Of a DNA stretch of 64,000 nt, positions 1-20,436 are shown in pieces. The stretch covers positions 13,717 to 77,716 of the forward strand of contig JAOAHX010000013.1 of NCBI GenBank assembly GCA_026415035.1, written 5' to 3'. This stretch comes from Thermodesulfobacteriota bacterium. GTDB lineage: Bacteria > Desulfobacterota > BSN033 > UBA1163. Each line of letters begins with the position of its first letter. Positions within the stretch are counted from its first letter, which is position 1. The translations under genes were made by a program, and so were the position numbers. The notes beneath the pieces are model-generated. The model was not told where the DNA came from and did not search any database. It saw only the letters and a list, made by a program, of their open reading frames with translations.

Positions 1-404
1 GGGAGGGAGAGCTTTTAAAAGAGGTGATCGTCCCGGGACCGCCCGAGGGGAGTCGTTTCTCGTATCTCAAATTGGGGCGGAGAAAGAGCATGGACCTCGC
101 CCTGGTGAGCGTCGCCGTCCTCTTGACATTGGGAGGAGGCGATCAGAGGTTCGAAAAGGTAAGGATCGGTTTGGGTTCGGTCGGCCCGACCCCCATCCGG
201 GCAAGGGAAGCAGAAAAGGTAATTGAAGGAGGACCTGTAAAGGAAGAGGCGATCCGTGAGGCGGCGGAGGTGGCCTCGAGGCATTGCGAGCCGATCACCG
301 ATATTCGGGCCTCTGCCGAATATCGAAGGGAGATGGTGAAGGTCCTGGTCGCAAGGGCGATTCAGGACTGCCTCGGGCTTCCCATCCCTCCCACGGGCAT
401 TTGA
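1..404 (+). CDS. Molybdenum hydroxylase FAD-binding medium subunit (CoxM/CutM-like), C-terminal fragment. The gene start lies upstream of the window.
   Basis: The frame is open from window position 1. The C-terminal 'DIRASAEYRREM' is the conserved CO dehydrogenase flavoprotein C-terminal domain. It sits directly upstream of the FeS and Mo subunits. Confidence 0.7.
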   Translation, partial: EGELLKEVIVPGPPEGSRFSYLKLGRRKSMDLALVSVAVLLTLGGGDQRFEKVRIGLGSVGPTPIRAREAEKVIEGGPVKEEAIREAAEVASRHCEPITDIRASAEYRREMVKVLVARAIQDCLGLPIPPTGI

Positions 405-428
405 GGGAGACCCTCGGGAGCGACATCG

Positions 429-917
429 GTGAAATATCCCCTGAGGTTGACGGTCAACGGAGAGCTCTTCGAGCTTGAGGTCGAAGCCCATCGGACCCTC
501 CTCGAGGTGTTGCGAAAGGACCTAAGATTAAAGGGGGCCAAGGAGGGTTGCGGGGCTGGAGAGTGCGGGGCCTGCACCGTCTTGCTGGATGACGAGCCCG
601 TCAACTCCTGTCTGGTCCTTGCCCTGCAGGCAGACGGAAGGCGGGTGACCACCATCGAAGGCCTGGCACAGGGGACAACCCTTCACCCCCTCCAGGAGGC
701 CTTCATCCGGCATGGGGCGATTCAATGCGGATTCTGCACGCCGGGGATGATCCTCTCGGCCAAAGCCTTTCTCGATCGAAACCCGGAGCCCACGGAGAGG
801 GAGATCCGTGAAGCCTTGGTGGGAAACTTCTGCCGCTGCACGGGATATCAAAAGGTCGTTGAAGCGATCCTCTCTTTGACACGAAGGGAAATGGGAAGAA
901 AGGGCCCAGGAGGATGA
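429..917 (+). CDS. Molybdenum hydroxylase [2Fe-2S] small subunit (CoxS/XdhC-type ferredoxin subunit)
   Basis: GTG start. Plant-type 2Fe-2S motif CGAGECGAC and second-cluster motifs CGFCTPG and CRCTGY. Length of 162 aa is typical. Confidence 0.9.
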   Translation: MKYPLRLTVNGELFELEVEAHRTLLEVLRKDLRLKGAKEGCGAGECGACTVLLDDEPVNSCLVLALQADGRRVTTIEGLAQGTTLHPLQEAFIRHGAIQCGFCTPGMILSAKAFLDRNPEPTEREIREALVGNFCRCTGYQKVVEAILSLTRREMGRKGPGG

Positions 918-924
918 TCGCACC

Positions 925-3204
925 ATGTCGACCTATTCGATCGTAGGCCGTTCCGTCCCCCAGATCGATGGGCGGGAAAAGGCCCAAGGGAAACTTGAAT
1001 TCATCACCGACCTCGAGCTACCGGGAATGCTCTACGGCAAGGTCCTGAGAAGCCCCCTCCCCCATGCGCGCATCGTATCGATCGATCCCTCCAGGGCAAA
1101 ACGGTTGAGGGGAGTCAGGGCCGTGGTCACGGCCGAAGACACCCCTAAAATCCCCTTCGGTCCGAGGACGGAGGACTGGCAGATCTTCGCCGTAGATAAG
1201 GTCCGGTTCATCGGCGACGAGGTGGCCGCCGTGGCCGCGGTGGACGAGGAGACGGCAGAGGAGGCCCTCGATCTGATCCGCGTGGAGTACGAGGAGCTTC
1301 CCGCGGTCTTCGATCCCATCGAGGCGATGAAGCCCGGCGCCCCTTTGATCCATGACCGGCCCAACAATATCGTCTCTGAATTCAGATTGGAGCGGGGCGA
1401 CGTGGAGAGGGCCTTTCGGGAGTGCGACGTCGTCCACGCCGGCCGCTACTACACGAACCAGGTCTATCAGGCCTATCTCGAACCGATGGCCTGTATCGCC
1501 CATGTCGACCCTTCGGGAAGATTGACCCTCTACCTGGCTACCCAGATCCCCTCGATGACAAGGCTCACCTATGCCAAGGCCCTGGGCCTTCCCCTCGAAA
1601 AGGTCCGGGTCGTCGTCCCTCCCTATGGCGGCGCCTTCGGCGCCAAGATGGAGACCAATCTTCATCTGGCCGCAGCCGTCCTCAGTCAGAAGACGGGAAG
1701 ACCGGTCCGGATGGTCAACAGCCGAGAAGAGGACTTCATGGCCGGCAACCCGAGGGTCCCGATGTATATCGACCTCAAGGTGGGTGCCAAGAAGGACGGA
1801 AGGTTGATCGCCAAAGAGGTGAGGGTCATCGGCGGCTCCGGTGCGAGGGCGATCTATTCGATGGCCATTGTGGCCACGGCCTGTTACCGGGTCGACTCCC
1901 TTTACCGATTCGAACATCTAAAGACCGAGGGCCTGACGGTTTACACCAACACCGTCCCCACCAGCTGTTTCCGGGGCTTCGGAAATGCCCAGATGACCTT
2001 TGCCCTCGAGAGCACGCTCGATATGATCGCGGAGGCGATCGGGATGGACCCGGCCGAATTGCGGATCAGAAACGGGCTCAAGACCGGAGAGGTCTCGATC
2101 CATGGCTGGCAGATCGGCTCTTCGGGGCTGGAGGAGTGCGTGCGAAGGGCCGTGGAGGTCTCGGGCTGGGAGGAGAAACGCCGGCAGAAGCGTTTTGCCC
2201 GAGGCATCGGTCTGGCCTGCTGCAACCACGTCTCGGGCAACCGGGCCTTCTCCAGGGAGTTCGACGGGGGCGCCGGGATCGTGCGGATCGGAAGGGAGGG
2301 AAAGGTCCTCGTCTATCACGGCGAGTCCGACATGGGCCAGGGGCAGAGGACCGTCTTTTCCCAGATCGTGGCCGAGGCGCTCGGGGTTGGCCTTGATCGG
2401 ATCGAGGTGGCCCAGGTCGATACCGAGATCAGCCCTTTCGGCCTCGGTAGCTTTGCCACGCGCGGGACGGTCTTCGGCGGAAACGGCCTTAAAGCCGCAG
2501 CCGAGGCTGCGAAGCAGCAGCTCCTCGAAGGGGTGGCCGAGATCTTCGAGACCTCCCCATCCGCCCTGGAGATCCGAGAGGGGAAGGTCTTTGTCAGGGA
2601 TGAACCGGAGCGTTGCCTCCCATTTGAGAAGGTCGCCGAAGCCTGTATGCTCAGGCGGGGCGGCGCTCCTGTCGTGGGCACAGGGTTCTGGGTTCCGGAT
2701 ACGGAGCTTCCAGATCCCGTGACCAAGTACGGAAATATCTCTCCGGCTTATCCGTTCGCCTGCCAGATCGCCGAGGTGGAGGTGGATACCGAGACCGGCC
2801 AGGTCAACGTGATCCGTTACACCGCAGCCCATGACGTGGGGCGGGCCATCAATCCCCAGGCCATCGAAGGCCAGATTCACGGCGGGGTGGCCCAGGGGAT
2901 CGGCTGGGCCTTGACGGAGGACATGATCCTCCGGGACGGAAAGGTGCTCAACCCCGACTTCAGGGATTACGTGATGCCGGGGCCGCTCGATCTTCCGCCG
3001 ATTCAGACGATTTTGGTGGAACCGGTCGATCCCAACGGGCCTTACGGAGCCAAAGGCATCGGGGAGCCCGCGCTCAATCCCTCCCCTGCCGCGGTGGCCA
3101 ATGCCATTTACGATGCCATCGGCATCCGCTTCACGGAGCTCCCCATCACCCCGGAGAAAATCCTGAAGGCACTGAAAGCCAAGAAGAGAGGGTCTCATGG
3201 CTGA
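925..3204 (+). CDS. Molybdopterin-binding large subunit of a xanthine dehydrogenase/aldehyde oxidoreductase/CO dehydrogenase family enzyme
   Basis: 759 aa. GGAFGAK (GGGFG-like) motif and the conserved 'QGxGxxT' region of the family. The start lies 7 nt after the coxS-like stop. Confidence 0.9.
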   Translation: MSTYSIVGRSVPQIDGREKAQGKLEFITDLELPGMLYGKVLRSPLPHARIVSIDPSRAKRLRGVRAVVTAEDTPKIPFGPRTEDWQIFAVDKVRFIGDEVAAVAAVDEETAEEALDLIRVEYEELPAVFDPIEAMKPGAPLIHDRPNNIVSEFRLERGDVERAFRECDVVHAGRYYTNQVYQAYLEPMACIAHVDPSGRLTLYLATQIPSMTRLTYAKALGLPLEKVRVVVPPYGGAFGAKMETNLHLAAAVLSQKTGRPVRMVNSREEDFMAGNPRVPMYIDLKVGAKKDGRLIAKEVRVIGGSGARAIYSMAIVATACYRVDSLYRFEHLKTEGLTVYTNTVPTSCFRGFGNAQMTFALESTLDMIAEAIGMDPAELRIRNGLKTGEVSIHGWQIGSSGLEECVRRAVEVSGWEEKRRQKRFARGIGLACCNHVSGNRAFSREFDGGAGIVRIGREGKVLVYHGESDMGQGQRTVFSQIVAEALGVGLDRIEVAQVDTEISPFGLGSFATRGTVFGGNGLKAAAEAAKQQLLEGVAEIFETSPSALEIREGKVFVRDEPERCLPFEKVAEACMLRRGGAPVVGTGFWVPDTELPDPVTKYGNISPAYPFACQIAEVEVDTETGQVNVIRYTAAHDVGRAINPQAIEGQIHGGVAQGIGWALTEDMILRDGKVLNPDFRDYVMPGPLDLPPIQTILVEPVDPNGPYGAKGIGEPALNPSPAAVANAIYDAIGIRFTELPITPEKILKALKAKKRGSHG

Positions 3205-4408
3205 CTTGAAAGTTCAGTTTTGCGGGATCGAGTTTAAAAACCCCATCCTGGCGGCCTCGGCCGAGCCCACGCTCTCGGCGGCCAACATGAAGCAGGTCAT
3301 CCAAACCGGCGCGGGCGGACTCGTGGCCAAGACCGTGACGGACTCCGAGGCCCTGAGGCGCCTGACCAAGAGGTCCAAGTTTCGCTACCTCGACGAAGAG
3401 CACCGGGTCTGTCGGGGGAAGGTGCCCCGCCTCTTCACCTTTTTCGGTCGAACCGGCCTCGCCGAAGAGACGCCCGAAGAGTGGATGAAGGAGCTGAAGG
3501 AGGCCCAGGCCTCTGCCCTGAAATCGGATTGCGTGATCATCGGCAGCGTGGCCGGGACGACGGTCGAAAGCTGGGTGACCCTTGCGAAGATGATCGAAGA
3601 CACGGGGATCCGCCTGGTCGAGCTTAACTTCGGGTGTCCCCACCCCTCGGAGATGAAGGGGACGCCCACGGGCATGCTGGTCGGGCAGGATAAAGCCTCG
3701 GCCTCCGAGATCACCCATCGGGTGACCGAGGCCGTGAAGATTCCCGTGATCATCAAACTGACGCCCCAGGTGGCCGATGTGGTGGAGATGGCCCGGGCGG
3801 TCCGATCGGCAGGGGCCTCGGCCGTGACGATCATCAACCGCTTCGTCGGATTCTGCGTCGATATCGAGACAGGAAAACCCCTCCTCCATGGGTGGGCAGG
3901 CGTGGGAGGTCCCTGGGTCAAACCCTTGACCCTCCGATGGGTCTCCAAGATTTACACGAGCCTCGGCCTTCCCATCACCGGGACCAACGGCGTCTACGAC
4001 TGGAAGGACGCCGTGGAGTTTATGATGTCCGGGGCGAGCCTGGTCCAGTTCTGCTCGGTCGTGATGCTCAAGGGATATGCCTATCTCGGGCGAATCGTGA
4101 AGGACCTGGAAGGCTTCCTGGACCGCAAAGGATACGGGTCGGTTCGAGAGATCATCGGCCTGGCGGCCCGGGCGGCCATGACCTACGAGGAGATGGAATC
4201 GCTTCCCAAGGAATATGCCTCGATCGATCCCACCCTGTGCACCGCCTGCAGGCGCTGTTTTCGTTCCTGTTTCTACAACGCGATCGAGGTAAAGGGGAAG
4301 GCCGTGAGGATCACCGAGGCCTGCCGGGGCTGTGGCCTCTGCACCTGCGTCTGTCCCGTGCCGGGCGCCATCCACCTTCAGAGCGAACCGCTCCGTTTTT
4401 CTTCTTGA
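3197..4408 (+). CDS. Dihydroorotate dehydrogenase-fold flavoprotein with a C-terminal 2x[4Fe-4S] domain (dihydropyrimidine dehydrogenase PreA-like)
   Basis: DHOD/DPD TIM-barrel motifs (ELNFGCPH, KLTP). C-terminal CTACRRCFRSC and CRGCGLCTCVCP ferredoxin motifs. ATG overlaps the coxL-like stop (ATGGCTGA). Confidence 0.8.
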   Translation: MADLKVQFCGIEFKNPILAASAEPTLSAANMKQVIQTGAGGLVAKTVTDSEALRRLTKRSKFRYLDEEHRVCRGKVPRLFTFFGRTGLAEETPEEWMKELKEAQASALKSDCVIIGSVAGTTVESWVTLAKMIEDTGIRLVELNFGCPHPSEMKGTPTGMLVGQDKASASEITHRVTEAVKIPVIIKLTPQVADVVEMARAVRSAGASAVTIINRFVGFCVDIETGKPLLHGWAGVGGPWVKPLTLRWVSKIYTSLGLPITGTNGVYDWKDAVEFMMSGASLVQFCSVVMLKGYAYLGRIVKDLEGFLDRKGYGSVREIIGLAARAAMTYEEMESLPKEYASIDPTLCTACRRCFRSCFYNAIEVKGKAVRITEACRGCGLCTCVCPVPGAIHLQSEPLRFSS

Positions 4409-4443
4409 CAAACTCCCGCCGATGATGTAATGGTTTAACCATT
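4405..4443 (+). promoter_or_regulatory. Sigma70-like promoter (TTGACA-17-TAATGG) overlapped by a 7-1-7 inverted repeat AATGGTTtAACCATT, a GntR/FadR-type T.GT-N-AC.A operator, in front of the gntR-family gene
   Basis: TTGACA at 4405-4410, a 17-nt spacer, TAATGG at 4428-4433, and the palindrome at 4429-4443. Confidence 0.5.
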
Positions 4444-4447: not shown

Positions 4448-5182
4448 ATGGATCGGATCTTCAGGAAGGCCAAACAGAGCCGGGCCTTCGAGGACGTCGT
4501 CTCCCAGATCCAGGAGGCGATCCTCGAAGGGAGATTGAAAACCGGGGAGCGGCTTCCGGGCGAACGGCAGTTGCGGGAGGCCTTTCAGGTCAGCCGGGGC
4601 ACCCTGAGGGAGGCCCTCCGGACCCTGGAGCAGAAGAAGCTCATCCAGATCCGGACCGGAGCCCGAGGGGGCGCGATCGTCTGTCCGGTCAACACCGAGC
4701 CCGTCAGCGAAAGCCTCGACCTCCTGCTCCGGTATCAGAAGGTCGGCCTGAAGGAGCTCGCGGAGTTCCGGGAGGAGGTGGAGGGAGCCGTGGCCGAGAG
4801 GGCAGCCCGGAGGGCGAAGAAGGAGGACATCGAGGAGCTGAAGGCCTATCTCGGATCGATGCAACCCCTCCTCGAGGACGGCCGAAATACCTGGAGGGAG
4901 ATGATCGAGATCGACAACCAATTTCATCGATGCCTGGCCCGGATGGCGGGCAACCGGGTCTTCGAATCGATCCTGACGATCGTCTATGACAACATCTTTC
5001 GGTATTTCGATCGGTTCCTTCCCAGAGACAAGAAGGTGGTCGAGAGGATCTACAAGGACCTGAGCGGGATCGTCGAGGCCATCCAAATGAAGGACCCCCA
5101 GAAGACCAAGGCCCTGATCCAGGACCACGTGAGGCGGTTCGACCGGATGATGGAGGCAAATCGGAAGAAGGTCTTCGGGTGA
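4448..5182 (+). CDS. GntR-family transcriptional regulator, FadR/FCD subfamily
   Basis: N-terminal winged HTH (ERLPGERQLREAFQVSRGTLREALRTLE) and a C-terminal FCD-like helical domain. 244 aa. Confidence 0.85.
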   Translation: MDRIFRKAKQSRAFEDVVSQIQEAILEGRLKTGERLPGERQLREAFQVSRGTLREALRTLEQKKLIQIRTGARGGAIVCPVNTEPVSESLDLLLRYQKVGLKELAEFREEVEGAVAERAARRAKKEDIEELKAYLGSMQPLLEDGRNTWREMIEIDNQFHRCLARMAGNRVFESILTIVYDNIFRYFDRFLPRDKKVVERIYKDLSGIVEAIQMKDPQKTKALIQDHVRRFDRMMEANRKKVFG

Positions 5183-5273: not shown

Positions 5274-6386
5274 ATGAAAAAGGTAAGCCTGTGGACGTTG
5301 ACAATACTTCTTTGCATAGGAATAGGTGTCTCATGGGTCACGCCCAAATCGACCGAGGCCCAGACCATCTCCTGGAAGATGCAGACGACCTGGCCCGCGG
5401 GCATGGCCCTTCACACGAGCGCGGTCGGTCTGGCCAAGAGGATCGAGGAGATGACAGGCGGCAGGCTCAAGATCGAGGTCTTGCCTGCAGGGGCCATCGT
5501 CCCTGCCTTTGAGGTCTTAGGAGCGGTCCACAAGGGGACCCTCGATGCGGCCCACGGATGGTCCGCCTACTGGATCGGAAGACACCCGGCGGCCAACCTC
5601 TTCTCCAGCGTGGCAGGCGGTCCCTTCGGCATGGACAACGTGGACTATGCGGGCTGGCTCTACCACGGAGGAGGACTGGAGCTTTACAGAGAACTTTACC
5701 TCGATGTGATGAAGATGAACGTCATGGTCTTTCCGACCGACATCATCGCCTCCGAACCCTTAGGTTGGTTTAAGAAGCCGATCAAGTCCTGGGCCGATTT
5801 AAAGGGGATCAAGATGCGAGAGGCGGGCTTGACGGCGGAGATCTATAAAGAGGCGGGCATCACGGTCGTGGCCATGCCCGGAGGCGAGATCCTGCCTGCG
5901 ATGGAGCGGGGGGTGATCGACGGAGCGGCCTTCATGTGCCCCACCACGGACAAGGAACTGGGACTCATGGATGTGGCCAAATTCTACCATGCCCCGGGCA
6001 TCCACCGGCACACCGGCACCTTGGAGCTCCTCATCAACAAAGAGAAATGGGATAGACTGCCAGCGGACATCAAGGCCATCGTCGATGTGGCCAGCCGCGA
6101 AAACCTCTTCCGCGCCTGGATCGACCTGGTCGATAAGAACGTAAAGGACCTCGAAGTCCTCAAGACCAAACATGGTGTGAAACTGGTCGAGACCCCCAAA
6201 GAGGTCATCCTCGAAATCCTGAAGGCGTGGGATAAGGTGGCGGCCCGATATGTGGCCAAGGACCCCTTCTTCGCCAAGGTCTATGCCTCCCAGAAGGAGT
6301 ATGCGAGGAAGATCGTGGAGTATCGCCGGGAATTCTACGTGCCCTACGAGTTGGTCGCCGACTACTACTGGCCGAAGAAGAAGTAG
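5274..6386 (+). CDS. TRAP transporter substrate-binding protein (DctP-like; COG4663-type)
   Basis: Signal peptide. The conserved 'SWKMQTTWPAG...RLKIEVLPAGAIVPAFEVLGAVHKGTLDAAHG' block is typical of TRAP solute receptors. Strong RBS. Confidence 0.8.
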   Translation: MKKVSLWTLTILLCIGIGVSWVTPKSTEAQTISWKMQTTWPAGMALHTSAVGLAKRIEEMTGGRLKIEVLPAGAIVPAFEVLGAVHKGTLDAAHGWSAYWIGRHPAANLFSSVAGGPFGMDNVDYAGWLYHGGGLELYRELYLDVMKMNVMVFPTDIIASEPLGWFKKPIKSWADLKGIKMREAGLTAEIYKEAGITVVAMPGGEILPAMERGVIDGAAFMCPTTDKELGLMDVAKFYHAPGIHRHTGTLELLINKEKWDRLPADIKAIVDVASRENLFRAWIDLVDKNVKDLEVLKTKHGVKLVETPKEVILEILKAWDKVAARYVAKDPFFAKVYASQKEYARKIVEYRREFYVPYELVADYYWPKKK

Positions 6387-6392
6387 AGGCCC

Positions 6393-6437
6393 CTCCCCCA
6401 TCCCCGTCGAGACAAGGGATGGGGGAGCCCCTTTTTT
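6393..6437 (+). terminator. Rho-independent terminator between the TRAP binding-protein gene and the permease genes
   Basis: 12-bp GC stem CTCCCCCATCCC/GGGATGGGGGAG with an 11-nt loop, followed by T6. Confidence 0.6.
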
Positions 6438-6463
6438 CGGTCATAGAGAAAGAGTGAACCGAG

Positions 6464-6991
6464 ATGAACCTATCGATCGAAAAACTGTTGAGCATCGCCC
6501 GCGGCATCGACCGGATCAGCCTCTGGTCGGGCACCAAGGCAGCCTGGCTCATCCTGCCCCTCATCTTCGGGCTGACCTATGAGGTGATCTCTCGCTATCT
6601 CTTCAAGGCCCCGACCATCTGGGCTTACGATTTGGCCTATATGCTCTACGGAAGCCATTTCATGTTGGGCGCGGCCTTCACCCTCTTCAAAAAGGGCCAT
6701 ATTCGGACCGATATCTTCTATGACAAGTGGTCTCCCAAAAAACAGGGGACGGTTGATGCCCTGCTCTACATCTTCTTCTTCTTCCCCGGCATCGCCCTCT
6801 TCTTCGTGGCCAGCTTGGAGGAGGCCATCCACTCCTGGAGCCTGTGGGAGAGGTCCGAGGTGGGCGCCTGGCGTCCGCCCATCTTCCCGTTTAAAACGGT
6901 GATCCCCCTGACCGCCCTCTTCCTTCTCGTCCAGGGGGTCTCCGAATTGATCAAAAGCCTCTATGCGGCCAAAAAGGGAGAATGGCCATGA
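6464..6991 (+). CDS. TRAP transporter small permease (DctQ-like)
   Basis: 175 aa with 4 predicted TM helices. It sits between the DctP-like and DctM-like genes. Confidence 0.7.
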   Translation: MNLSIEKLLSIARGIDRISLWSGTKAAWLILPLIFGLTYEVISRYLFKAPTIWAYDLAYMLYGSHFMLGAAFTLFKKGHIRTDIFYDKWSPKKQGTVDALLYIFFFFPGIALFFVASLEEAIHSWSLWERSEVGAWRPPIFPFKTVIPLTALFLLVQGVSELIKSLYAAKKGEWP

Positions 6992-8304
6992 AGCCGGAAT
7001 ATGTGGGACTCATCCTTTTAGGATCGCTCCTTACGGGAATCTTCGTTGGATTTCCCATCGCCTTCACGCTCATCATCCTCGCTGTGGTCTTCGGGTATAT
7101 CGGCTTCGGCATGGGCGTCTTCGACCTGATGGTCTTTCAGACCCTCGGTCTGATGAAGGAGGAGACCTTGGCCGCCGTTCCCCTTTTCATCTTCATGGGC
7201 CATCTCTTAGAACATGCGGGATTGATGGAGCGGCTCTTCAAATCCTTCCAATCGATCTTGGGCGGCCTCAAGGGCTCTCTCTACCTCGGCGTCCTTCTGA
7301 CGGCAACGATCTTTGCCACCGCCACGGGGATCATCGGCGCTTCGGTCACGGTGATCGGGTTGATGGCCGCCCCGCTCATGATCAAAAGCGGCTACGACAC
7401 GAGGCTCTCCGCAGGGGTGATCACCGCAGGAGGAGCCCTGGGCATCCTCATCCCACCGAGCGTCATGCTCGTCGTCATCGGACCGGTGGTGGGCGTCTCG
7501 GTCGTCAAACTCTTCGTTGCGGCCATCCTGCCCGGCCTTCTCCTGTCGGCCCTCTACTGCACCTACTCCCTGATCAAGTGTCACATCTGGCCCGAGCTGG
7601 GTCCCACGGTGCCTCCGGAGGAGAGGATCACCTCGACCCGCGAGATCTTAAAAGAGCTCTTTTCGGGGATCGTGCCGATGGCCTTCATCATCTTTGCTGC
7701 CCTCGGAAGCATCATCGCAGGCCTGGCCACACCGACCGAGGCCGCGGCCATGGCGGCCAGTGGCGCCCTCCTCCTGACCATCGCCTATCGAAAGCTGACC
7801 CGAGAGGTCTTGAAAGAGGCGGCCTACAAGACGATCCAGACCTCGAGCATGATCCTCTTTCTCGCGATGGCCTCAAACATCTTCGGCGCGGTCTTCACCC
7901 GCCTGGGGACGAGTTCGATGATCGCCAAGGCGATGCTCTCCATCCCCATCCCTCCGATGGGCATGCTGGCCCTGCTCATGGTCGTCATCTTCCTCTTGGG
8001 ATGGCCCCTCGAGTGGCCGGCCATCGTCTTCATCTTCCTTCCCATCTTCCTTCCTGTGGTTCAGGAATTGAAATTAGACAAGGTCTGGTTCAGCACCCTG
8101 GTGGCGGTCAACCTTCAGACGGCCTACCTCTCTCCGCCCGTGGCCATGGCCGCTTACTATCTGAAGGCCGTGGCCCCGAAGTGGGAGCTGCTCGACATCT
8201 ATAAAGGGATGGCCGAGTTCATGGTCCTCCAGGTGATCGGCCTCATCCTCGTCTTCATCTTTCCCCAGATCGCCCTCTGGTTGCCGAACCTTTTGCTAAA
8301 ATAG
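6982..8304 (+). CDS. TRAP transporter large permease (DctM family)
   Basis: 440 aa polytopic membrane protein with DctM-like repeats. An alternative start at 6988 has better RBS spacing. The overlapping 6963..8204 frame is an artefact. Confidence 0.85.
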   Translation: MAMKPEYVGLILLGSLLTGIFVGFPIAFTLIILAVVFGYIGFGMGVFDLMVFQTLGLMKEETLAAVPLFIFMGHLLEHAGLMERLFKSFQSILGGLKGSLYLGVLLTATIFATATGIIGASVTVIGLMAAPLMIKSGYDTRLSAGVITAGGALGILIPPSVMLVVIGPVVGVSVVKLFVAAILPGLLLSALYCTYSLIKCHIWPELGPTVPPEERITSTREILKELFSGIVPMAFIIFAALGSIIAGLATPTEAAAMAASGALLLTIAYRKLTREVLKEAAYKTIQTSSMILFLAMASNIFGAVFTRLGTSSMIAKAMLSIPIPPMGMLALLMVVIFLLGWPLEWPAIVFIFLPIFLPVVQELKLDKVWFSTLVAVNLQTAYLSPPVAMAAYYLKAVAPKWELLDIYKGMAEFMVLQVIGLILVFIFPQIALWLPNLLLK

Positions 8305-8340: not shown

Positions 8341-9519
8341 ATGGACCCGAAGAGGCATTTCGATCTTCTCATCGTGGGAGGCGGGGTGATGGGATCGAGC
8401 CTCGCCTACCATCTCGCCCACGATGGGTTTCAGGGACGGGTGGCCGTCTTCGAGAAAGACCCCTCCTATGAGAAGGCCTCCACGGTCCTAAGCGTGGGCG
8501 GCATCCGGAGGCAGTTCAGCACCGAGGTCAATGTCCGGCTCTCCCAGTATAGCCTCGCCTTCTATCGGGAGTTCGGTGAGCGGATGGAGGTCGAGGGCGT
8601 CCGGCCCGAGATCGACTTTAAACCGAGGGGCTATCTCTTCCTCGGGAACGAGAGGAACTGGCCCCTTTTGGTCAAACACCAGGCCTTCCAGAGATCGCTC
8701 GGCGTGGAGACGAAGCTCTTAACCCCCGAAGAGACCCTCCGGCTCATCCCAGACCTCAATGCAGAGGACCTGGTCGGCTCCTCCTTCTCTCCGGGCGACG
8801 GCTACATGGATCCCCACAGCGTGCTTCAGGGGTTTGTCAGAAAGGCAAAACACCTCGGCGTCACCTATATCCACCAGGAGGTGGTCGAAATCTTCCGCAA
8901 AGGGGATCGGCTGGAGGGGTTGAGGACGAAGGAGGGCACGACCTACGCAGCTCCGATCATCGTGAATGCGGCCGGCCCCTATGCCGGAGCCGTGGGAAGG
9001 ATGGCCGGAATCGAGATCCCGGTGGTTCCGGTGAGGCGGATGGTCTATCTCGTCAAACCCCCTCGACTCTTCGAATACGACCTTCCCTTGGTGATCGATC
9101 CCTCGGGCGTCTACTTCCTTCACGAGACAGGGAGGCAGATCCTGACAGGAAAGTCGAGAAAGGAGGAGCCCCCGGGATTCAACTTCCAGTGGGATCGGGA
9201 CTACTTCCAGGAGACGATTTGGCCTGCCCTGGCCCACCGGATTCCTCTCTTCGACGCGCTGAAACTGGTCAGCGGCTGGGCAGGGCTTTATGAGATCAAC
9301 CAGTGGGACTTCAACGGGATCATTGGAAATCATCCGGAGGTCTCCAATTTCTTCATGGCCGTTGGATTCAGCGGCCATGGATTTCAACAGGCGCCCGCCG
9401 TAGGCAAAGCCCTCTCCGAAAAGATCCGCCTCGGCCGATACGAGACCGTGGATGCAAGCCCTTTGGGATACGAACGGATCGTCGAGGGGAGAAAGGTCCT
9501 GGAGGAGGAGGTGATATAG
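8341..9519 (+). CDS. FAD-dependent oxidoreductase (DadA/sarcosine-oxidase-beta/D-amino-acid dehydrogenase family)
   Basis: N-terminal Rossmann dinucleotide fold DLLIVGGGVMGSSLAYHLA. 392 aa. PF01266-like architecture. Confidence 0.8.
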   Translation: MDPKRHFDLLIVGGGVMGSSLAYHLAHDGFQGRVAVFEKDPSYEKASTVLSVGGIRRQFSTEVNVRLSQYSLAFYREFGERMEVEGVRPEIDFKPRGYLFLGNERNWPLLVKHQAFQRSLGVETKLLTPEETLRLIPDLNAEDLVGSSFSPGDGYMDPHSVLQGFVRKAKHLGVTYIHQEVVEIFRKGDRLEGLRTKEGTTYAAPIIVNAAGPYAGAVGRMAGIEIPVVPVRRMVYLVKPPRLFEYDLPLVIDPSGVYFLHETGRQILTGKSRKEEPPGFNFQWDRDYFQETIWPALAHRIPLFDALKLVSGWAGLYEINQWDFNGIIGNHPEVSNFFMAVGFSGHGFQQAPAVGKALSEKIRLGRYETVDASPLGYERIVEGRKVLEEEVI

Positions 9520-9605
9520 AGCAAGTTTCAATTTTGGGGGATGAAGGGGGTTATGGGATAGCAGAGGGTGAACAATAGACAACAAAACGAGGAGCGAGAG
9601 GACCG

Positions 9606-10580
9606 ATGCTTATTCTGGACAAAAAGGATCTGGAAGAGCTTCTGCCGATGGAAGAGGTGATAGAGGTTCTAAGGGCGGGATTCCGCGAGGTCAAAGAGGG
9701 CCGATGCGTCGTTCCGGTCCGGTTCCACCTTGCCGTCGGAGAGTATCAAGGGCAGTTTCTCTTCATGCCCGCCTACCTCTCCGGCCTGAAGCAGGCTGGG
9801 ACGAAGATCGTCTCGGTCTTTCCCCAGAATGTCTCCAGGGGAAAACCTACGATCTATGCGACCTATCTGCTCTGCGATCCGACCACCGGGGAGTTGCTGG
9901 CGGTGATGGAAGGGGCCACGCTCACGGGGATTCGCACGGGCGCCGCCTCCGGATTGGCGACTGGGTACCTCGCAAGAAAGGAGGCGAAGGCCCTCGGCGT
10001 GATCGGAACGGGCTTCCAATCTTATTTTCAGGTCAGGGCGATCCAGGCCGTTCGCTCCATCGAGGAGATCTGGGCCTACGATACCGACCCAAACAGGCTT
10101 CGGGAATTCTGCGAGAGGTTTTCGCCCTTCGTTAAGGTCCATCCCGTTTCGAGTGCCTCGGAGGTCGTGAGGCCAAGCGACATCCTGATCACCTCAACCA
10201 CTTCCACCACGCCGGTCTTTTCCGGAAGGGACCTGAAGCCCGGAACCCACATCAACGCCATCGGCGCCTTCCGTCCCGATATGCGCGAGACCGACGACGA
10301 GACCGTCCTCCGGGCCAAGATCGTTGTCGACACCTACGAGGGCTGTCTCAGCGAGGCAGGCGACCTGCTCATCCCCATGGCCGAGGGAAAGTTGAAAAAG
10401 GAGGCTATCCATGGAGATCTGGGAGACCTGGTCACCGGAAGGAAGAAGGGGAGAGAGACGGAGGAGGAGATCACCTTATTTAAATCGGTGGGCTTTGCCA
10501 TGGAGGATGTGGTGACCGCCTCCCATGCCTATGAAAAGGCAGGCCGAAGCGGGATGGGAAAGAGGATCGAGCTCTTGTAA
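9606..10580 (+). CDS. Ornithine cyclodeaminase/mu-crystallin family enzyme (cyclodeaminase or ketimine/pyrroline-2-carboxylate reductase)
   Basis: 324 aa. The family-typical N-terminus and the Rossmann GxGxQ region (LGVIGTGFQS). Strong RBS. Confidence 0.8.
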   Translation: MLILDKKDLEELLPMEEVIEVLRAGFREVKEGRCVVPVRFHLAVGEYQGQFLFMPAYLSGLKQAGTKIVSVFPQNVSRGKPTIYATYLLCDPTTGELLAVMEGATLTGIRTGAASGLATGYLARKEAKALGVIGTGFQSYFQVRAIQAVRSIEEIWAYDTDPNRLREFCERFSPFVKVHPVSSASEVVRPSDILITSTTSTTPVFSGRDLKPGTHINAIGAFRPDMRETDDETVLRAKIVVDTYEGCLSEAGDLLIPMAEGKLKKEAIHGDLGDLVTGRKKGRETEEEITLFKSVGFAMEDVVTASHAYEKAGRSGMGKRIELL

Positions 10581-10594
10581 AGGGAGGGTCGAAC

Positions 10595-12223
10595 GTGAAC
10601 GGCATCTTCAGGATCGAAAAACCGGTGAACGAACCCGTCTGTTCCTATGCCCCAGGAACGGTGGAGAGGGAGAAGTTGAAGGCCCAGCTGGCCAAGATGT
10701 TGAAGGAGGAGGTCGAGATTCCCCTCCTCATCGGAGGAAAGGAGGTCCGCACGGGCGACCTCGGCGAATGCCGATGTCCCCACGACCATGGGCATCTCCT
10801 GGGCCGTTACCATAAAGCAGGCCCGAGGGAGGTGGAGAAAGCGATCGAGGAGGCCCGGAAGGCCTGGCAGGAGTGGTCGGAGATGGACTGGGTGGCGCGG
10901 GCCACGATCTTTCTGAGGGCGGCGGAATTGATCACCTCCAAATACCGCTTCATCCTCAATGCGGCGACGATGCTGGGCCAGTCGAAGACCGCGCACCAAG
11001 CCGAGATCGATTCTGCGTGTGAGGTCGCCGACCTCTATCGCTTCAATCCCTACTACATGAGCCAGATCTACCACTGGCAACCCGAATCGACGGCCGAGGC
11101 CTGGAATCGTCTCGACTATCGGCCTCTCGAAGGGTTCGTCTTTGCTGTCTCGCCTTTCAACTTCACGGCCATCGCGGGCAATCTTCCGACCGCCCCGGCC
11201 ATGATGGGCAATACCGTGGTCTGGAAGCCCGCTTCCACGGCCGTCTATTCAGCTTACTTCCTGACACGCTTGTGGAAGGAGGCAGGCCTTCCTGACGGCG
11301 TGATCAACTTCATCCCCGGTTCGGCAAGCACCATCGGAAATCTCGTGCTCACCCATCCCGATCTGGCAGGGCTTCACTTCACCGGCAGCACCTCCACCTT
11401 CCTCGAGATGTGGAGGACGATCGGTACCCACATCGAGCGATATAAGACCTATCCGAGGATCGTGGGGGAGACCGGAGGGAAGGACTTCGTCTTCGTCCAC
11501 CGCTCTGCCGACGTGGAGGTGGCGACCACGGCCCTCATCCGCGGGGCCTTCGAATACCAAGGCCAGAAGTGTTCGGCCGCAAGTCGGGCCTACATCCCGT
11601 CCAACCTGTGGCCCTCGCTCAAGGAGCGGCTGATCGACGAGATCAAGACGATCCGGATGGGCGACGTGACCGATTTTTCAAACTTCATGGGAGCGGTCAT
11701 CGACCAGGCCTCCTTTGAGAAGATCTCGAGCTACATCGACTACGCGAGGCATTCGGGAGAGACCGAGGTCCTCTGCGGGGGCGGCTGCGACAGGTCGAAG
11801 GGATACTTCATCGAGCCGACCCTCATCCTCACCCAGAACCCCCATCACCGGCTGATGGTCGAGGAGATCTTTGGCCCTGTCTTGACCCTCTTCGTCTACC
11901 CGGAGGAGGCCTTCGAGGAGACCCTCGAGCTCTGTAACCGAACGTCTCCTTATGGCCTCACGGGCAGCATCCTGGCAAGCGACCGGAAGGCGATCGAAAA
12001 GGGGTTGAAGGCCCTCCGCCATGCCGCGGGCAATTTCTATATCAACGACAAGCCGACCGGCGCGGTGGTGGCCCAACAGCCCTTCGGAGGGGGGAGGCAG
12101 TCCGGGACGAACGACAAGGCGGGCTCGATCTTCAACCTCATCCGTTGGACCAGCCCGAGGGCGATCAAAGAGAACCTTCTCCCTCCGACCGATTATCGCT
12201 ATCCCTTCCTGGCCGAACCTTGA
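10595..12223 (+). CDS. 1-pyrroline-5-carboxylate (glutamate-gamma-semialdehyde) dehydrogenase, RocA/PruA type
   Basis: ALDH superfamily. Catalytic ETGGKD and Cys motif GQKCSAASR. 542 aa. GTG start with a GGGAGGG RBS. Confidence 0.8.
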   Translation: MNGIFRIEKPVNEPVCSYAPGTVEREKLKAQLAKMLKEEVEIPLLIGGKEVRTGDLGECRCPHDHGHLLGRYHKAGPREVEKAIEEARKAWQEWSEMDWVARATIFLRAAELITSKYRFILNAATMLGQSKTAHQAEIDSACEVADLYRFNPYYMSQIYHWQPESTAEAWNRLDYRPLEGFVFAVSPFNFTAIAGNLPTAPAMMGNTVVWKPASTAVYSAYFLTRLWKEAGLPDGVINFIPGSASTIGNLVLTHPDLAGLHFTGSTSTFLEMWRTIGTHIERYKTYPRIVGETGGKDFVFVHRSADVEVATTALIRGAFEYQGQKCSAASRAYIPSNLWPSLKERLIDEIKTIRMGDVTDFSNFMGAVIDQASFEKISSYIDYARHSGETEVLCGGGCDRSKGYFIEPTLILTQNPHHRLMVEEIFGPVLTLFVYPEEAFEETLELCNRTSPYGLTGSILASDRKAIEKGLKALRHAAGNFYINDKPTGAVVAQQPFGGGRQSGTNDKAGSIFNLIRWTSPRAIKENLLPPTDYRYPFLAEP

Positions 12224-12275
12224 TGAGGAAAGGCCGGCTCCGAAGGAGGGAATCGTACGACGAGAGGAGAATGCG

Positions 12276-13799
12276 ATGAAGGCACTGCTTGAGAAGCTCG
12301 GCATCCGTGAGGTCAACCGGGGCGCCTGTTCAGGAGCCGACCTCTGGTTCGACGATCCGGAAGGCAAGGAGTTGACCTCCTACAACCCGACCACCGGGGA
12401 GCCCATTGCCAAGGTGATCCAGGCGACGGAGAAGAGTTACGATCAGGTGGTCTCCCATGCGGTCAAGGCCTTCAAGACCTGGCGTATGGTCCCCGCGCCG
12501 AAGCGGGGGCTCCTCGCCCGGGACTTTGCCCAGCTCTTGAGGGAGTTCAAAGAACCCCTAGGCGAGCTGGTGACCCTCGAGATGGGAAAGATCAAGGTGG
12601 AAGGGATGGGGGAGGTCCAGGAGATGATCGACATCTGCGACTTCGCCGTAGGTCTCTCGAGGCAACTCTATGGGCTGACCATGCATTCGGAAAGGCCCGG
12701 CCACCGGATGTACGAGCAGTGGCATCCTCTCGGAGCCATCGGCGTGATCACGGCCTTCAACTTCCCTGTGGCGGTCTGGTCCTGGAACGCGGCCATCGCG
12801 GGCGTGTGCGGAGATACGGTCGTCTGGAAACCCTCCTCCGAAACGCCCCTCTGTGCCGTAGCCGTCCAGCACCTCGCCAACCGGATCATGGCCGATCACG
12901 GCCTATCGGGCATTTTCAACCTCGTCATCGGTCCGGGGTCGGTCATCGGTAGGAGGATGATCGACGATCCGAGGCTTCCCCTCCTCTCCTTCACAGGCTC
13001 GACCAAGATGGGTCGCCAGGTGGCCGAAGGGGTGGCCAGGAGGCTCGGACGGACGATCCTCGAATTGGGCGGAAACAACGCCATTATCGTGGCCGAGGAT
13101 GCCGATCTGGAGATGGCCGTCCGATCCATCCTCTTCGGCGCGGTGGGGACAGCGGGTCAGCGATGCACCTCGACCCGCAGGATCATCGTCCATCGCTCGG
13201 TCAGTCAGGAGTTGACCGAGAGGCTCTGCAAAGCCTATAGCCAGGTCCGGATCGGAGATCCTCTAAAGGAAGGGGTCCTGATGGGCCCCCTGGTGACGAA
13301 GGAGGCCGTCGAGGAGATGATGGCCGCCCTGGAGAAGGCGAGGCAGCAGGGCGGGGTCATCCTCTACGGGGGGAGGCGGCTTTCGGACCTTGGGGAGCGA
13401 TTCGTCGAACCGACGATCGTGAAGATGCCGGCTCAGACCGAGATCGTCCACCATGAGACCTTTGCCCCAATCCTCTACCTTATCGAATACGAGGACTTCG
13501 AGGAGGCGATCCGGATCCACAATGAAGTGCCCCAGGGGCTTTCGAGCGCCATCTTCACCCGGAGCCTGAGGACGGCCGAGCGGTTCCTCTCCCATGAGGG
13601 GTCGGACTGCGGGATCGCCAATGTCAATATCGGGACCTCGGGTGCGGAGATCGGAGGGGCCTTCGGAGGCGAAAAGGAGACCGGCGGCGGCAGGGAGTCG
13701 GGATCCGACGCCTGGAAGGGCTACATGCGGCGCCAGACCAACACGATCAACTGGTCCACGGAACTTCCCCTCGCCCAGGGCATCAAGTTCGGGGACTGA
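12276..13799 (+). CDS. ALDH7 (antiquitin)-type aldehyde dehydrogenase; alpha-aminoadipic/piperideine-6-carboxylate semialdehyde dehydrogenase-like
   Basis: ELGGNN and GQRCTS motifs. The C-terminal 'GIANVNIGTSGAEIGGAFGGEKETGGGRESG' is diagnostic of the ALDH7 family. The start was moved to an internal ATG with a GGAGGA RBS. The ORF-track start at 12021 overlaps the previous gene. Confidence 0.8.
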   Translation: MKALLEKLGIREVNRGACSGADLWFDDPEGKELTSYNPTTGEPIAKVIQATEKSYDQVVSHAVKAFKTWRMVPAPKRGLLARDFAQLLREFKEPLGELVTLEMGKIKVEGMGEVQEMIDICDFAVGLSRQLYGLTMHSERPGHRMYEQWHPLGAIGVITAFNFPVAVWSWNAAIAGVCGDTVVWKPSSETPLCAVAVQHLANRIMADHGLSGIFNLVIGPGSVIGRRMIDDPRLPLLSFTGSTKMGRQVAEGVARRLGRTILELGGNNAIIVAEDADLEMAVRSILFGAVGTAGQRCTSTRRIIVHRSVSQELTERLCKAYSQVRIGDPLKEGVLMGPLVTKEAVEEMMAALEKARQQGGVILYGGRRLSDLGERFVEPTIVKMPAQTEIVHHETFAPILYLIEYEDFEEAIRIHNEVPQGLSSAIFTRSLRTAERFLSHEGSDCGIANVNIGTSGAEIGGAFGGEKETGGGRESGSDAWKGYMRRQTNTINWSTELPLAQGIKFGD

Positions 13800-13982
13800 T
13801 CCCTTCCATCGGATGCCCGCCCCAAAGCCGGAATAGCTTCTGTCAGGATCTTTCGCACCTCATCAATCCCGGAATACCCACAGTGGGAGTTTCTCTTTTT
13901 TGTCTTCGAACCGGCCTTCAACGATCTTCCCAGACCTCTTCGTTTGGTGTAAAATAGGCCCGAATGAGATGGGGAGGATCCT

Positions 13983-16199: not shown

Positions 16200-16417
16200 G
16201 TAATGATTTGGGGGAAACGAATATCTTGCTCTAAGCGGCCTGTTTCTTTCGATTTCTGATAGGCTGCTTCCCCGATGATCTCGACCTCTTTAATCAGCGT
16301 TAAGGTAAGCTTACGGTCATGATCAAAGGCTTCGCGTTGTTTCTCAAGGGTAAAGTCCATGATCTCACGGGCGGCATCCAGCATGTGCTGTAGTCGGATT
16401 CGATCATCCTTCCACAT
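16127..16417 (-). CDS. HepT-like (DUF86) toxin homologue lacking the canonical Rx4HxY motif
   Basis: DUF86 core '[12 protein letters not shown]...EVEIIGEAA'. The C-terminal region reads AGRLMVKWV where RNxxxHxY is expected. The start (about 16417) overlaps the upstream NTase gene by about 14 nt. Local GC is low. Confidence 0.5.
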
Positions 16418-16709
16418 ATTGCACCTCTGCTTTTTCCTGGATCTCCTTTCGGAAATAACGGCTGAGGTCCTCGGGAGTGCGGAGGTCCACCTTACGGCCT
16501 CCAAACAAAGCAGAGAGTTCCCGTTCCATTCGAGCGATCTTTAAGAGACTTGGAACGTGATCGGGCTCAAATTCAACCAATAAATCGATGTCACTGTCCG
16601 GGGAAAAGTCTTCCCGAAGGGCCGATCCAAACAGGGCCAGGCGTCGGATATGGTAGCGCCGGCAAAACTCTGATAGTTCTTGCTGAGGAATGTTTAAATT
16701 TTTTTTCAT
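16404..16709 (-). CDS. MntA-type minimal nucleotidyltransferase antitoxin
   Basis: GSxxRxxxxxxSDxD motif ([22 protein letters not shown]). ATG at 16709 with a GGGGATAAGG RBS. It is paired with the DUF86 gene. Confidence 0.7.
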
Positions 16710-16744
16710 CCTTATCCCCCACTCCTTTTGAATGGGTCTTTTCT

Positions 16745-17242
16745 TCACTTAAACTCCACGAACTGGTCTTTGGGGGCGGAGCAAACCGGACAGGTCTCAG
16801 GACAGTGGCCATCTGCCACGAAGCCGCACACCTGACAGACATAATAAGTGGTTTCCCGCTCCCCGATCAGGTGATTGATGGCCATTTTGTAGAGTTTGGC
16901 ATGGCCCTCCTCGACGTCTCTCGCCTGGGAGAAGATCGTGGCAGAGGCGGTATCCCCTGCGTTCTCGGCAAGGGCGATGAAATTTTCGTAGGCCACCCCT
17001 GCGATCCCTGTCTCGGACTGGAAACTCTCTTTAAGATTTGACTCAGTATCCTTTATCTCCCTTAACATCCGGAGGGCCCGCTCGCCATGGATCTCCTCGC
17101 TGAAGGCGATGACCCGAAAGAGTTTGGCCATCTGGGGAAGCCCCTCCTGGTCCGCCTTTTTGGCAAAGACCTTCAATCGGAGGGCCGCTTTTGCCTCCGC
17201 CTCATAGACGGTTTGAAAGGCCTCTCGGATCTTCTCCTCCAT
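16745..17242 (-). CDS. rbr: Rubrerythrin
   Basis: Diiron ExxH motifs ([17 protein letters not shown]) and a C-terminal rubredoxin-like CQVCG...CPVCS. Confidence 0.9.
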
Positions 17243-17556
17243 CCTCCCCTCCCGATTTGGGAATGATCTTTTACCCCTCTCAATAGAAAATCAGGGATGG
17301 CTCCAGTATATCACAAAAATATCTGACGTTGAAACCTTGCACAGTAAGGTGCGATGAAAACGGGATTGTGAATCTTTTCTTCTTGAATTTTTCCAATTTT
17401 TCCTCATAATAAAGTCACCCTCCCATTCGGAAGGGTTCGTTGCAGGCTGGCCTCGAACCTTCTCCGACTGAGCAAATGGCTTAATTAACTTAATTAAAAT
17501 GACAAGGGGGATAGACGGAGCGTAAGAAGTCAACCTCGTGAGAAGGAGGAAAACCG

Positions 17557-18582: not shown

Positions 18583-18604
18583 CAAGAATATGAAAGAGAT
18601 TTTG

Positions 18605-18636
18605 GGGCCTGCGCCTGAGGGAGCAGGCCCTTTTTG
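18605..18636 (+). terminator. Rho-independent terminator downstream of the DHDPS-family gene
   Basis: Stem GGGCCTGC/GCAGGCCC with a 10-nt loop, followed by TTTTT. Confidence 0.55.
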
Positions 18637-20079: not shown

Positions 20080-20352
20080 CCCCTCCTCGCTTTCGTTTGA
20101 TGTGTGGGTAATGGTGGCGATATGCCGGTGGGTTCTGACGGCCGCCTAAACCTGTTTCACCTCCTTTCGACAGGGATGACCGAGCGCTGAAACACCGATG
20201 CGATGGTGGATTGAGTACTTAAACCGGATCCCTTCCACTCATATAAAAAACCCCCTGTTTTGTCAAGGGAAAAGTCAGGGGATAGAAGGCTTCCAACTCC
20301 TTTTCAACATTGACTTTTTCTCTATTTGTGTTAACATCGAATCAGCTTGGCG

Positions 20353-20385: not shown

Positions 20386-20436
20386 TCTCTGGGATGAGCC
20401 CTCAGGGGCAGCCATTCTATCCAAAGAGGAGTTTCT

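Follow-up and report, generated by a model that had tools for sequence, protein, structure and literature searches.

A molybdenum (Mo) hydroxylase and a flavin/iron–sulfur protein resembling PreA are encoded side by side at positions 1–4408 of the stretch analysed here (64,000 nucleotides (nt) from a Thermodesulfobacteriota bacterium, hereafter the window). They are best read as consecutive enzymes of an operon that degrades a carboxylated N-heteroaromatic compound without oxygen, and the probability of this reading was put at about 60%. A sequence-only reading of the window had proposed an undescribed N-heterocycle hydroxylase/reductase. The route in which a hydroxylase and then a reductase act on an N-heterocyclic acid was retained as the best interpretation, whereas the idea that both activities reside in a single complex was weakened. 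No description of a Mo hydroxylase with a PreA-like partner, or of DUF2848, a family found near these genes, was found in the literature.

The four genes at positions 1–4408 were annotated as follows.

Positions 1–404, + strand: C-terminal 133 codons of the FAD-binding medium subunit M (CoxM/XdhB type), the gene being truncated by the window start; Pfam CO_deh_flav_C, E 2e-29.
Positions 429–917, + strand: small subunit S (CoxS/XdhC type) with two [2Fe-2S], 162 aa, without a CoxG/SRPBCC extension; Pfam Fer2_2, E 3e-34, and Fer2, E 2e-9.
Positions 925–3204, + strand: large molybdopterin subunit L, 759 aa, GenBank MCX8118036.1; Pfam Ald_Xan_dh_C, E 1e-29, MoCoBD_1, E 2e-79, and MoCoBD_2, E 9e-82.
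Positions 3197–4408, + strand: PreA-like flavoprotein resembling dihydropyrimidine dehydrogenase (DPD), 403 aa, GenBank MCX8118037.1, with an FMN domain of the dihydroorotate dehydrogenase (DHOD) fold and a C-terminal 2x[4Fe-4S] domain; Pfam DHO_dh, E 4e-36, and Fer4_21.

The close packing of these genes on one strand, which had been described earlier, was confirmed, with gaps of 24 nt between M and S and 7 nt between S and L. The overlap of the PreA-like start with the L stop was likewise found as described. The ATG (3197–3199) and the TGA (3202–3204) share the 8 nt at 3197–3204, which read ATGGCTGA, and purine runs of the Shine–Dalgarno type lie upstream of every start in this region. The 5′ part of the window operon was taken from locus L001, an 85%-identical relative. 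The operon of L001 begins with DUF2848 and an omega-amidase-like CN hydrolase, which M, S, L and PreA-like follow, with spacings of 3 to 27 nt, and a terminator-like hairpin stands after the Cupin_7 gene, upstream of the DUF2848-to-PreA-like operon. By comparison with L001, positions 1–4408 of the window are read as the 3′ portion of a catabolic operon. In L001 the L and PreA-like genes do not overlap but lie 10 nt apart, with a GAGGA ribosome-binding site in between, and the 8-nt overlap is particular to the window genome. The P5CR-like gene found upstream in L001 proved to be a true proC equivalog, probably with a housekeeping role, and was dropped as evidence.

The identity of the PreA-like protein was evaluated by profile searches, which had been suggested for all four proteins and which recovered the Mo-hydroxylase domains of M, S and L and the DHO_dh and Fer4_21 domains of the fourth. 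Pig DPD aligned with the PreA-like protein over domains IV (FMN) and V (Fe–S) with an E value of 1e-42. The score against the NCBIfam PreA model (NF006183) was 271 bits, below the cut-off of 335, and that for class 1 PyrD was 208 bits against cut-offs of 269–270; the protein also has an extra Fe–S domain besides the single-domain build of PyrD. Clade members were 37–100% identical to the window protein, whereas true PreA proteins were 31–36% identical, and the two groups formed the two sides of one bipartition in a neighbour-joining (NJ) tree. The protein is assigned to a separate, PreT-less clade and not to true PreA. Both the bipartition and the score agree with the sequence-only reading, which had set the protein apart from bona fide PreA. 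True PreA identity was rejected on score, partner and substrate residues. A class 1B DHOD was considered and rejected, and a Dus enzyme was rejected, the Pfam Dus match being a weak overlap with the same barrel. The names in public annotation vary, from 'tRNA-dihydrouridine synthase' (MCX8118037.1) to 'dihydroorotate dehydrogenase', 'PreA' and 'hypothetical' (P0001 and P0011 among the relatives). No current annotation name fits the evidence for this clade.

The catalytic residues were kept in both the clade and true PreA, namely C147 (pig C671, in the motif NFGCPHP), N144 (N668) and N214 (N736), together with the FMN lysines K45 and K187 (pig K574 and K709) and all eight cluster cysteines. The uracil contacts differed. 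The N-x-I-x-L of PreA corresponds to Y-G-R-T-G in the clade (Y83-G84-R85), by which the equivalent of pig N609 is replaced and R85 is gained, and the Thr of PreA (pig T737) corresponds to R215. Y83-G84-R85 and R215 were each at least 93% conserved in the clade, and at the replaced uracil-contact positions the clade and true PreA were each at least 89% conserved for their differing residues. From this pattern we infer a pocket remodelled for an anionic, probably carboxylated substrate, in which the DPD-type C=C reduction chemistry is kept. TRAP transporters usually import carboxylates, and their genes recur in many clade loci (L010, L015–L022, L092, and L093), which fits an anionic or carboxylated substrate. 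The proposed role of the PreA-like protein is that of an ene-lactam (hydroxy-N-heteroaromatic acid) reductase. The likeness to PreA/PreT and to domains IV–V of mammalian DPD (PDB 1H7W/1GT8) lies in the FMN barrel, the C-terminal 2x[4Fe-4S] and the catalytic Cys, and the expected chemistry, in which a C=C in conjugation with a ring amide is reduced, is alike. In contrast to those enzymes, the clade has no PreT partner, no dihydropyrimidinase neighbour, replaced N609/T737 contacts and two pocket arginines.

The gene neighbourhoods of the clade were explored in 80 loci from a one-genome-per-species scan and in metagenome loci, and were scored by phmmer with reference proteins from the loci; the context statistics compare 24 clade loci with 63 true PreA loci. 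A Mo-hydroxylase large subunit was encoded within 10 kb in 17/24 clade loci and in 2/63 PreA loci (Fisher p 1e-10). The conservation of the arrangement, on which the earlier proposal had been made to depend, was thus found, and the linkage holds across lineages from Desulfobacterota through to Burkholderiaceae and Planctomycetes. The earlier remark that the PreT partner is missing was also upheld. No PreT/GltD-like open reading frame (ORF) was found in the 64-kb window by phmmer (E<1e-6) with a genuine PreT from a Geobacillus PreT-PreA-dihydropyrimidinase locus. PreT was adjacent in none of the 24 clade loci, compared with 54/63 true PreA loci. A dihydropyrimidinase was nearby in 0/24 and 42/63, respectively, whereas Cupin_7 and DUF2848 genes occurred in 12/24 clade loci and in 0/63 PreA loci. 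In metagenomes, over 120 sequence clusters shared an identity of 55% or more with the window PreA-like protein. The clade is tied to Mo hydroxylases and lactam/amide hydrolases in Desulfobacterota, Dehalococcoidales, Synergistota, Burkholderiaceae and Planctomycetes.

Among the variable neighbours of the clade, enzymes that hydrolyse amides or lactams predominate. The nearest match of the CN hydrolase was the Nit2 omega-amidase 2W1V (152 bits), and a caprolactamase-like HyuAB directly follows the PreA-like gene in L021 (Burkholderiaceae). The other hydrolase neighbours are an amidase-signature enzyme in L026, a D-Glu-cyclase-like hydro-lyase in L010, RidA in L092 and an M20 hydrolase. A single-sequence search of PDB gave no match for DUF2848, and a profile search gave E=0.74 to an FAH-family isomerase. 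Genes that may supply reduced ferredoxin recur as well: a POR/KOR-type four-subunit 2-oxoacid:ferredoxin oxidoreductase is encoded beside the cluster in L006, L010, L024 and L093 and upstream in L001, and a ferredoxin and an FNR-like gene stand beside the PreA-like gene in Blastopirellula (L026). Locus L092 (1243–21197) has four Mo large-subunit genes with FAD and [2Fe-2S] genes around one PreA-like gene, and additionally ILVD/EDD, SDR, RidA and TRAP genes, which suggests multiple hydroxylation steps or multiple related substrates. In L094 (906–18057), a corrinoid-binding protein and two URO-D-family methyltransferases are encoded upstream of the cluster. The Mo enzyme there is an S–L fusion of 853 aa with no FAD subunit nearby, and an Amdase/Asp_Glu_race-family gene and a second, shorter DHOD+Fer4 paralogue (310 aa) are also present.

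The relation between the two enzymes was evaluated according to the position of their genes. M, S and L were contiguous in every locus carrying all three, whereas the position of the PreA-like gene varied. Only in the window, L001 and L002 does it come directly after L, and in L010 it precedes L (14-nt gap). ILVD/EDD-family and SDR genes lie between the PreA-like and Mo genes in L003, L008 and L092; the PreA-like gene is 2–8 kb from the Mo genes in L013, L093, L094 and the Burkholderiaceae loci; and no Mo enzyme is near it in L006/L012, L023 and L025. Because the position of the gene varies and ferredoxin-generating genes recur nearby, consecutive enzymes are favoured, with the PreA-like protein as an independent ferredoxin-dependent enzyme acting after the hydroxylase in the pathway.

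The sequence-only reading had taken the start/stop overlap as an argument for an obligate four-subunit complex, a claim that lost ground because the PreA-like gene moves while M/S/L stay together. In such a complex, electrons from Mo would pass through [2Fe-2S], FAD and [4Fe-4S] to FMN and reduce the same ring that had been hydroxylated, and the net reaction would be redox-neutral with no external cofactor. This arrangement is considered unlikely, although several observations speak for it. Besides the overlap ATGGCTGA in the window, gaps of 10 nt in L001 and 14 nt in L010 leave the genes nearly contiguous. PreA normally requires its Fe–S/flavin partner PreT, and none was found here. The S–L fused Mo enzyme of L094 has no FAD subunit nearby, so that another acceptor must take its electrons. 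Moreover, L resembles the alpha subunit of 4-hydroxybenzoyl-CoA reductase (4-HBCR), whose holoenzyme uses an additional [4Fe-4S] cluster, and M is without the corresponding insertion. Against the complex stand the shifting PreA-like gene, often 2–8 kb off with intervening genes, the clade members without a nearby Mo enzyme and the co-occurrence of ferredoxin-generating genes. Furthermore, the similarities of L and of the PreA-like protein did not run in parallel from locus to locus: L013 has a 54% identical PreA-like protein and the best L score (1083 bits), whereas L010 has a 61% identical PreA-like protein and an L score of 459, which argues against co-evolving subunits. A self-contained, internally wired, redox-neutral hydroxylase-reductase that converts an aromatic N-heterocyclic acid into a partly saturated lactam independently of cofactors is regarded as quite improbable; no description of such wiring of a xanthine-oxidase-family enzyme to a DPD-type module was found in the literature.

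The favoured succession of separate enzymes would proceed in three steps. In the first, as expected from its family, M/S/L would place a water-derived OH on the ring carbon next to N, and the product would be a pyridone or pyrrolinone, that is, an alpha,beta-unsaturated lactam. In the second, to judge from the conserved catalytic residues, the PreA-like enzyme would reduce the C=C of the lactam by hydride and Cys-proton chemistry, comparable to the conversion of uracil to dihydrouracil. The electrons would most likely come from low-potential ferredoxin, because PreT is lacking and ferredoxin-generating genes lie alongside in other genomes. In the third, suggested by gene context, hydrolysis would open the reduced lactam, with enzymes that differ by lineage: the candidates are Cupin_7, DUF2848 and a Nit2-like omega-amidase; a caprolactamase-like HyuAB; an amidase-signature enzyme; and a D-Glu-cyclase-like hydro-lyase. 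The ring-opened product would be a 2-oxo- or 2-amino-dicarboxylate, which might then be oxidised by 2-oxoacid:ferredoxin oxidoreductase.

The Mo enzyme M/S/L is classed as an ordinary new member of the xanthine-dehydrogenase/CoxMSL family. L has the a/b-hammerhead and two MoCo-binding domains in Pfam, and S has the two [2Fe-2S] domains Fer2 and Fer2_2. The part of M within the window holds the C-terminal CO_deh_flav_C domain alone, and the L001 orthologue (295 aa) has FAD_binding_5 and CO_deh_flav_C. The best NCBIfam matches of M were glyceraldehyde dehydrogenase beta and XdhB, all under their cut-offs. The closest solved relative of L is the alpha subunit of 4-HBCR (HcrABC, PDB 1RM6), with 479 bits over the full length. 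The C-terminal motif GAKGIGEP of L aligns with GAKEASEG of 1RM6, and the conserved Glu, which probably has an active-site role, is kept.

The similarity to 4-HBCR raises a reading in which M/S/L runs in reverse, dehydroxylating a (hetero)aromatic acid, with the PreA-like protein mainly as a low-potential electron-input module. The best NCBIfam match of L is TIGR03194, the host belongs to a strictly anaerobic lineage (a Thermodesulfobacteriota metagenome-assembled genome, MAG), and the 2x[4Fe-4S] ferredoxin domain of the PreA-like protein would suit such a module. However, L is not an equivalog of 4-HBCR alpha because its TIGR03194 score was 668 bits against a cut-off of 995. The M protein of L001 scored 121 bits against a cut-off of 404 for the beta model TIGR03195, in two stretches, its best matches being of the XdhB type. 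The [4Fe-4S] insertion of 4-HBCR beta is missing from it, as judged by the length of 295 aa, too short for the insertion, and by the split profile match. 4-HBCR works on a CoA thioester, whereas the window cluster has no CoA-ligase context. The complete and strongly conserved catalytic site of the PreA-like protein (Cys, Asn, Lys) is unexpected in a mere electron carrier, and amide- and lactam-hydrolysing enzymes are abundant in the context. Reverse operation is hence considered very improbable. The notion of an ordinary dihydropyrimidine or dihydroorotate dehydrogenase subunit, a chance neighbour of the Mo hydroxylase with its PreT or PyrK encoded elsewhere, agrees with the best NCBIfam matches (PreA and class-1 PyrD) and with the names PreA, DHOD or Dus given to relatives by the JGI and NCBI pipelines, but is strongly disfavoured by the missed family cut-offs, the separate clade in the NJ tree, the replaced uracil-binding residues, the counts for PreT (0/24 vs 54/63) and dihydropyrimidinase (0/24 vs 42/63), and the conserved linkage to Mo hydroxylase, Cupin_7 and DUF2848.

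The gene context gives a tentative lead on the substrate of the consecutive enzymes. Picolinate, by way of 6-hydroxypicolinate, is the leading candidate because clade members of Burkholderiaceae adjoin a PicA-type picolinate dehydrogenase, although for the window itself the assignment falls somewhat short of even odds; pyrrole-2-carboxylate and nicotinate are the alternatives. The Mo enzyme of L015, L018–L021 and L026 has the order L-M-S with S fused to CoxG/SRPBCC, and this order and fusion are the architecture of picolinate dehydrogenase PicA1A2A3 (bioRxiv 10.1101/530550). Directly upstream of the PicA-type enzyme of L021, a TRAP binding protein is encoded that scored 668 bits over its full length against PDB 4YIC/4YZZ. 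According to Foldseek, the 4YIC entry is BB0280 of B. bronchiseptica RB50; its ligand is presumably picolinic acid. In a table of pic clusters, exactly one unassigned gene stands between picB1 and picA1 in RB50 and S798 (bioRxiv 10.1101/530550). The Burkholderiaceae-type clusters have a PreA-like gene and HyuAB where the aerobic clusters have the O2-dependent 6-hydroxypicolinate monooxygenase PicB, which suggests that the PreA-like enzyme takes over 6-hydroxypicolinate in PicB's stead. The window neighbours that handle saturated ring-acid analogues, an L-piperidine-6-carboxylate dehydrogenase, an OCD protein like Pyr2C/Pip2C reductases, a DAO-family oxidoreductase and P5C dehydrogenase, also point towards a picolinate-type substrate.

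Loci L016–L022 (Burkholderiaceae, Lautropia), for example L021 at 10001–20928, carry, in this order, PreA-like, HyuA/HyuB, a TRAP binding protein and PicA-type L-M-S(CoxG). Upstream of these genes, L017 and L021 have two extra S–L Mo enzymes and L018 has one; cytochrome c/FCSD genes are also present in this upstream part of L021. In L013 (11326–14392), which belongs to a Desulfobacter MAG from the coral Oculina patagonica, the stretch between PreA-like and M/S/L encodes a BCCT betaine-type transporter and an MttB-family methyltransferase, which suggests an N-methylated quaternary substrate (homarine, trigonelline) that is demethylated ahead of hydroxylation. The demethylation genes of L013 and L094 (corrinoid protein and URO-D methyltransferases) fit precursors of the N-methylpyridinium acid type, such as homarine and trigonelline. 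The homarine pathway homABCDER is oxygen-dependent (PMC13236597) and is unrelated to the window locus.

The proposed route was compared with two known pathways. The aerobic pic pathway of Alcaligenes faecalis JQ135 resembles it in the first step, in which a three-component Mo hydroxylase forms 6-hydroxypicolinate, and a PicA-type enzyme also occurs in clade loci of Burkholderiaceae, Ideonella and Blastopirellula. The aerobic pathway then uses the four-component O2-dependent PicB, a decarboxylase and a ring-cleaving dioxygenase, whereas the clade has a PreA-like reductase and hydrolases; moreover, the window Mo enzyme belongs to another subfamily, its L being closest to 4-HBCR. Nicotinate fermentation of Eubacterium barkeri (NdhFSLM, 6-hydroxynicotinate reductase, enamidase) follows the same logic of Mo hydroxylation next to N, ring reduction and hydrolytic opening. 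The reduction of 6-hydroxynicotinate is ferredoxin-dependent there, and the reductase is, we assume, not of the DHOD fold. The Mo enzyme of L093 is split into two Mo-binding pieces, comparable to NdhL/NdhM. In E. barkeri, the ring of 6-hydroxynicotinate is partly saturated and is then opened hydrolytically by the enamidase (PMC9304392). The clade differs in having Cupin_7, DUF2848, omega-amidase or HyuAB for the opening, as seen in scans that contained no probes for enamidase, the B12 mutase or the methylitaconate pathway. The ring-reducing family and the hydrolase set differ from those of both nicotinate fermentation and the aerobic pic pathway.

Several observations weigh against an oxygen-independent route of consecutive enzymes, or against picolinate as its substrate. 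A physical complex is compatible with the close spacing of the PreA-like and Mo genes, which overlap by 8 nt in the window and are 14 nt apart in L010. The clade loci are not phylogenetically independent, four of them being from closely related Burkholderiaceae, and in L023 and L025 neither a Mo enzyme nor Cupin_7 or DUF2848 is encoded within 10 kb. The roles given to Cupin_7 and DUF2848 are guesses. The window Mo enzyme is not orthologous to the PicA type, having the order M-S-L and a 162-aa S without CoxG, and the window L scored about 240–260 bits against PicA-type L subunits. The picolinate assignment reaches the window only through a 47%-identical PreA-like protein. Moreover, the window TRAP binding protein is 30% identical to BB0280 and groups equally with alpha-keto-acid and lactate binders.

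The genes that follow the PreA-like gene and the signals ahead of them were located as follows.

Positions 4381–4403, + strand: terminator-like hairpin GAGCGAACCGCTC with a T-rich tail, found by consensus scan within the last codons of the PreA-like gene.
Region 4405–4443, + strand: promoter-like TTGACA (4405–4410), a 17-nt spacer and TAATGG, immediately upstream of gntR.
Positions 4429–4443, + strand: 15-bp perfect palindrome AATGGTTTAACCATT, overlapping TAATGG and resembling a FadR/GntR-type operator.
Positions 4448–5182, + strand: GntR/FCD-family regulator; Pfam GntR and FCD.
Positions 5274–8304, + strand: TRAP transporter with DctP (5274–6386), DctQ (6464–6991) and DctM (6982–8304); Pfam DctP, binding protein of the TakP/alpha-keto-acid type.
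Positions 8341–9519: DAO-family oxidoreductase.
Positions 9606–10580: OCD/mu-crystallin protein, near Pyr2C/Pip2C reductases.
Positions 10595–12223: P5C (L-glutamate gamma-semialdehyde) dehydrogenase.
Positions 12276–13799: L-piperidine-6-carboxylate dehydrogenase equivalog, 798 bits against a cut-off of 730.

The hairpin at 4381–4403 is a possible end of the Mo-hydroxylase/PreA-like transcription unit; it is a weak signal, 16 terminator-like sites having been found against 12.4 expected by chance. The core of the palindrome, TGGTNNNACCA, occurs once in the 64 kb, and L001 (11209–11248) has kept both TTGACA and TAATGGTTTAACCATTA ahead of its gntR gene. The palindrome AATGGTTTAACCATT is a likely autoregulatory operator of the GntR/FCD gene. 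It was found only ahead of gntR in the window and in L001 and was not found upstream of the Mo operon of L001; co-regulation of that operon by GntR through a shared operator was thus left unsupported. The GntR/TRAP/imino-acid genes are probably a separate, self-regulated unit, because the hairpin, the promoter-like site and the palindrome lie ahead of gntR and the latter two are conserved in L001. The regulator probably controls its own gene and the downstream transporter genes. The AlphaFold2 (AF2) model of the window DctP had a pLDDT of 91, and its top Foldseek matches were 4YIC/4YZZ (BB0280), followed by 7UG8, 2HZL and 2ZZV (alpha-keto-acid and lactate binders).

The imino-acid island extends over 8341–13799 and 17557–18582 and looks like combined proline and pipecolate catabolism; a PAS histidine kinase (13983–16199) and a DapA-family protein come after it. 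The GntR/TRAP/imino-acid locus had been cited in support of a heterocycle or imino-acid substrate. That support held in part: GntR/FCD genes recur in the clade loci L006, L008, L027 and L093, and TRAP genes recur in distant clade loci as well, whereas the imino-acid genes are linked only in the window lineage and have their own promoter/operator.

In the rest of the window, a housekeeping block (recA, a T2SSE-type ATPase, alaS, gltX and smc) occupies 21134–31096. A branched-chain-type ABC transporter, two AMP-binding (CoA ligase-like) genes, one BcrAD/BadFG-type ATPase and two HGD-D genes at 31547–43651 form what is classed as a 2-hydroxyacyl-CoA-dehydratase-like set, 34 kb from the Mo/PreA-like genes. 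Two long ORFs, at 45033–46547 (− strand, 503 aa) and 59258–60850 (+ strand, 530 aa), had no Pfam match at E<=1e-5. The G+C content is about 0.60 over the first 14 kb and declines to about 0.51–0.55 past 52 kb.

Picolinate arises from tryptophan metabolism, and homarine and trigonelline derivatives come from marine and plant sources. To our knowledge, nicotinate, in one clostridial relative, is essentially the only pyridine or pyrrole carboxylic acid for which genes of oxygen-independent breakdown are known. The locus defines a widespread, unnamed clade of DPD-like flavo-Fe–S enzymes. If the proposed pathway is true, the missing ring-reducing enzyme of a reductive picolinate-type pathway would be supplied, and a systematic misannotation ('PreA', 'DHOD', 'tRNA-dihydrouridine synthase') would be corrected. 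Moreover, the clade would provide marker genes for anaerobic N-heterocycle turnover, and aerobic (PicB) and anaerobic (PreA-like) solutions would have been exchanged behind one shared first hydroxylation.

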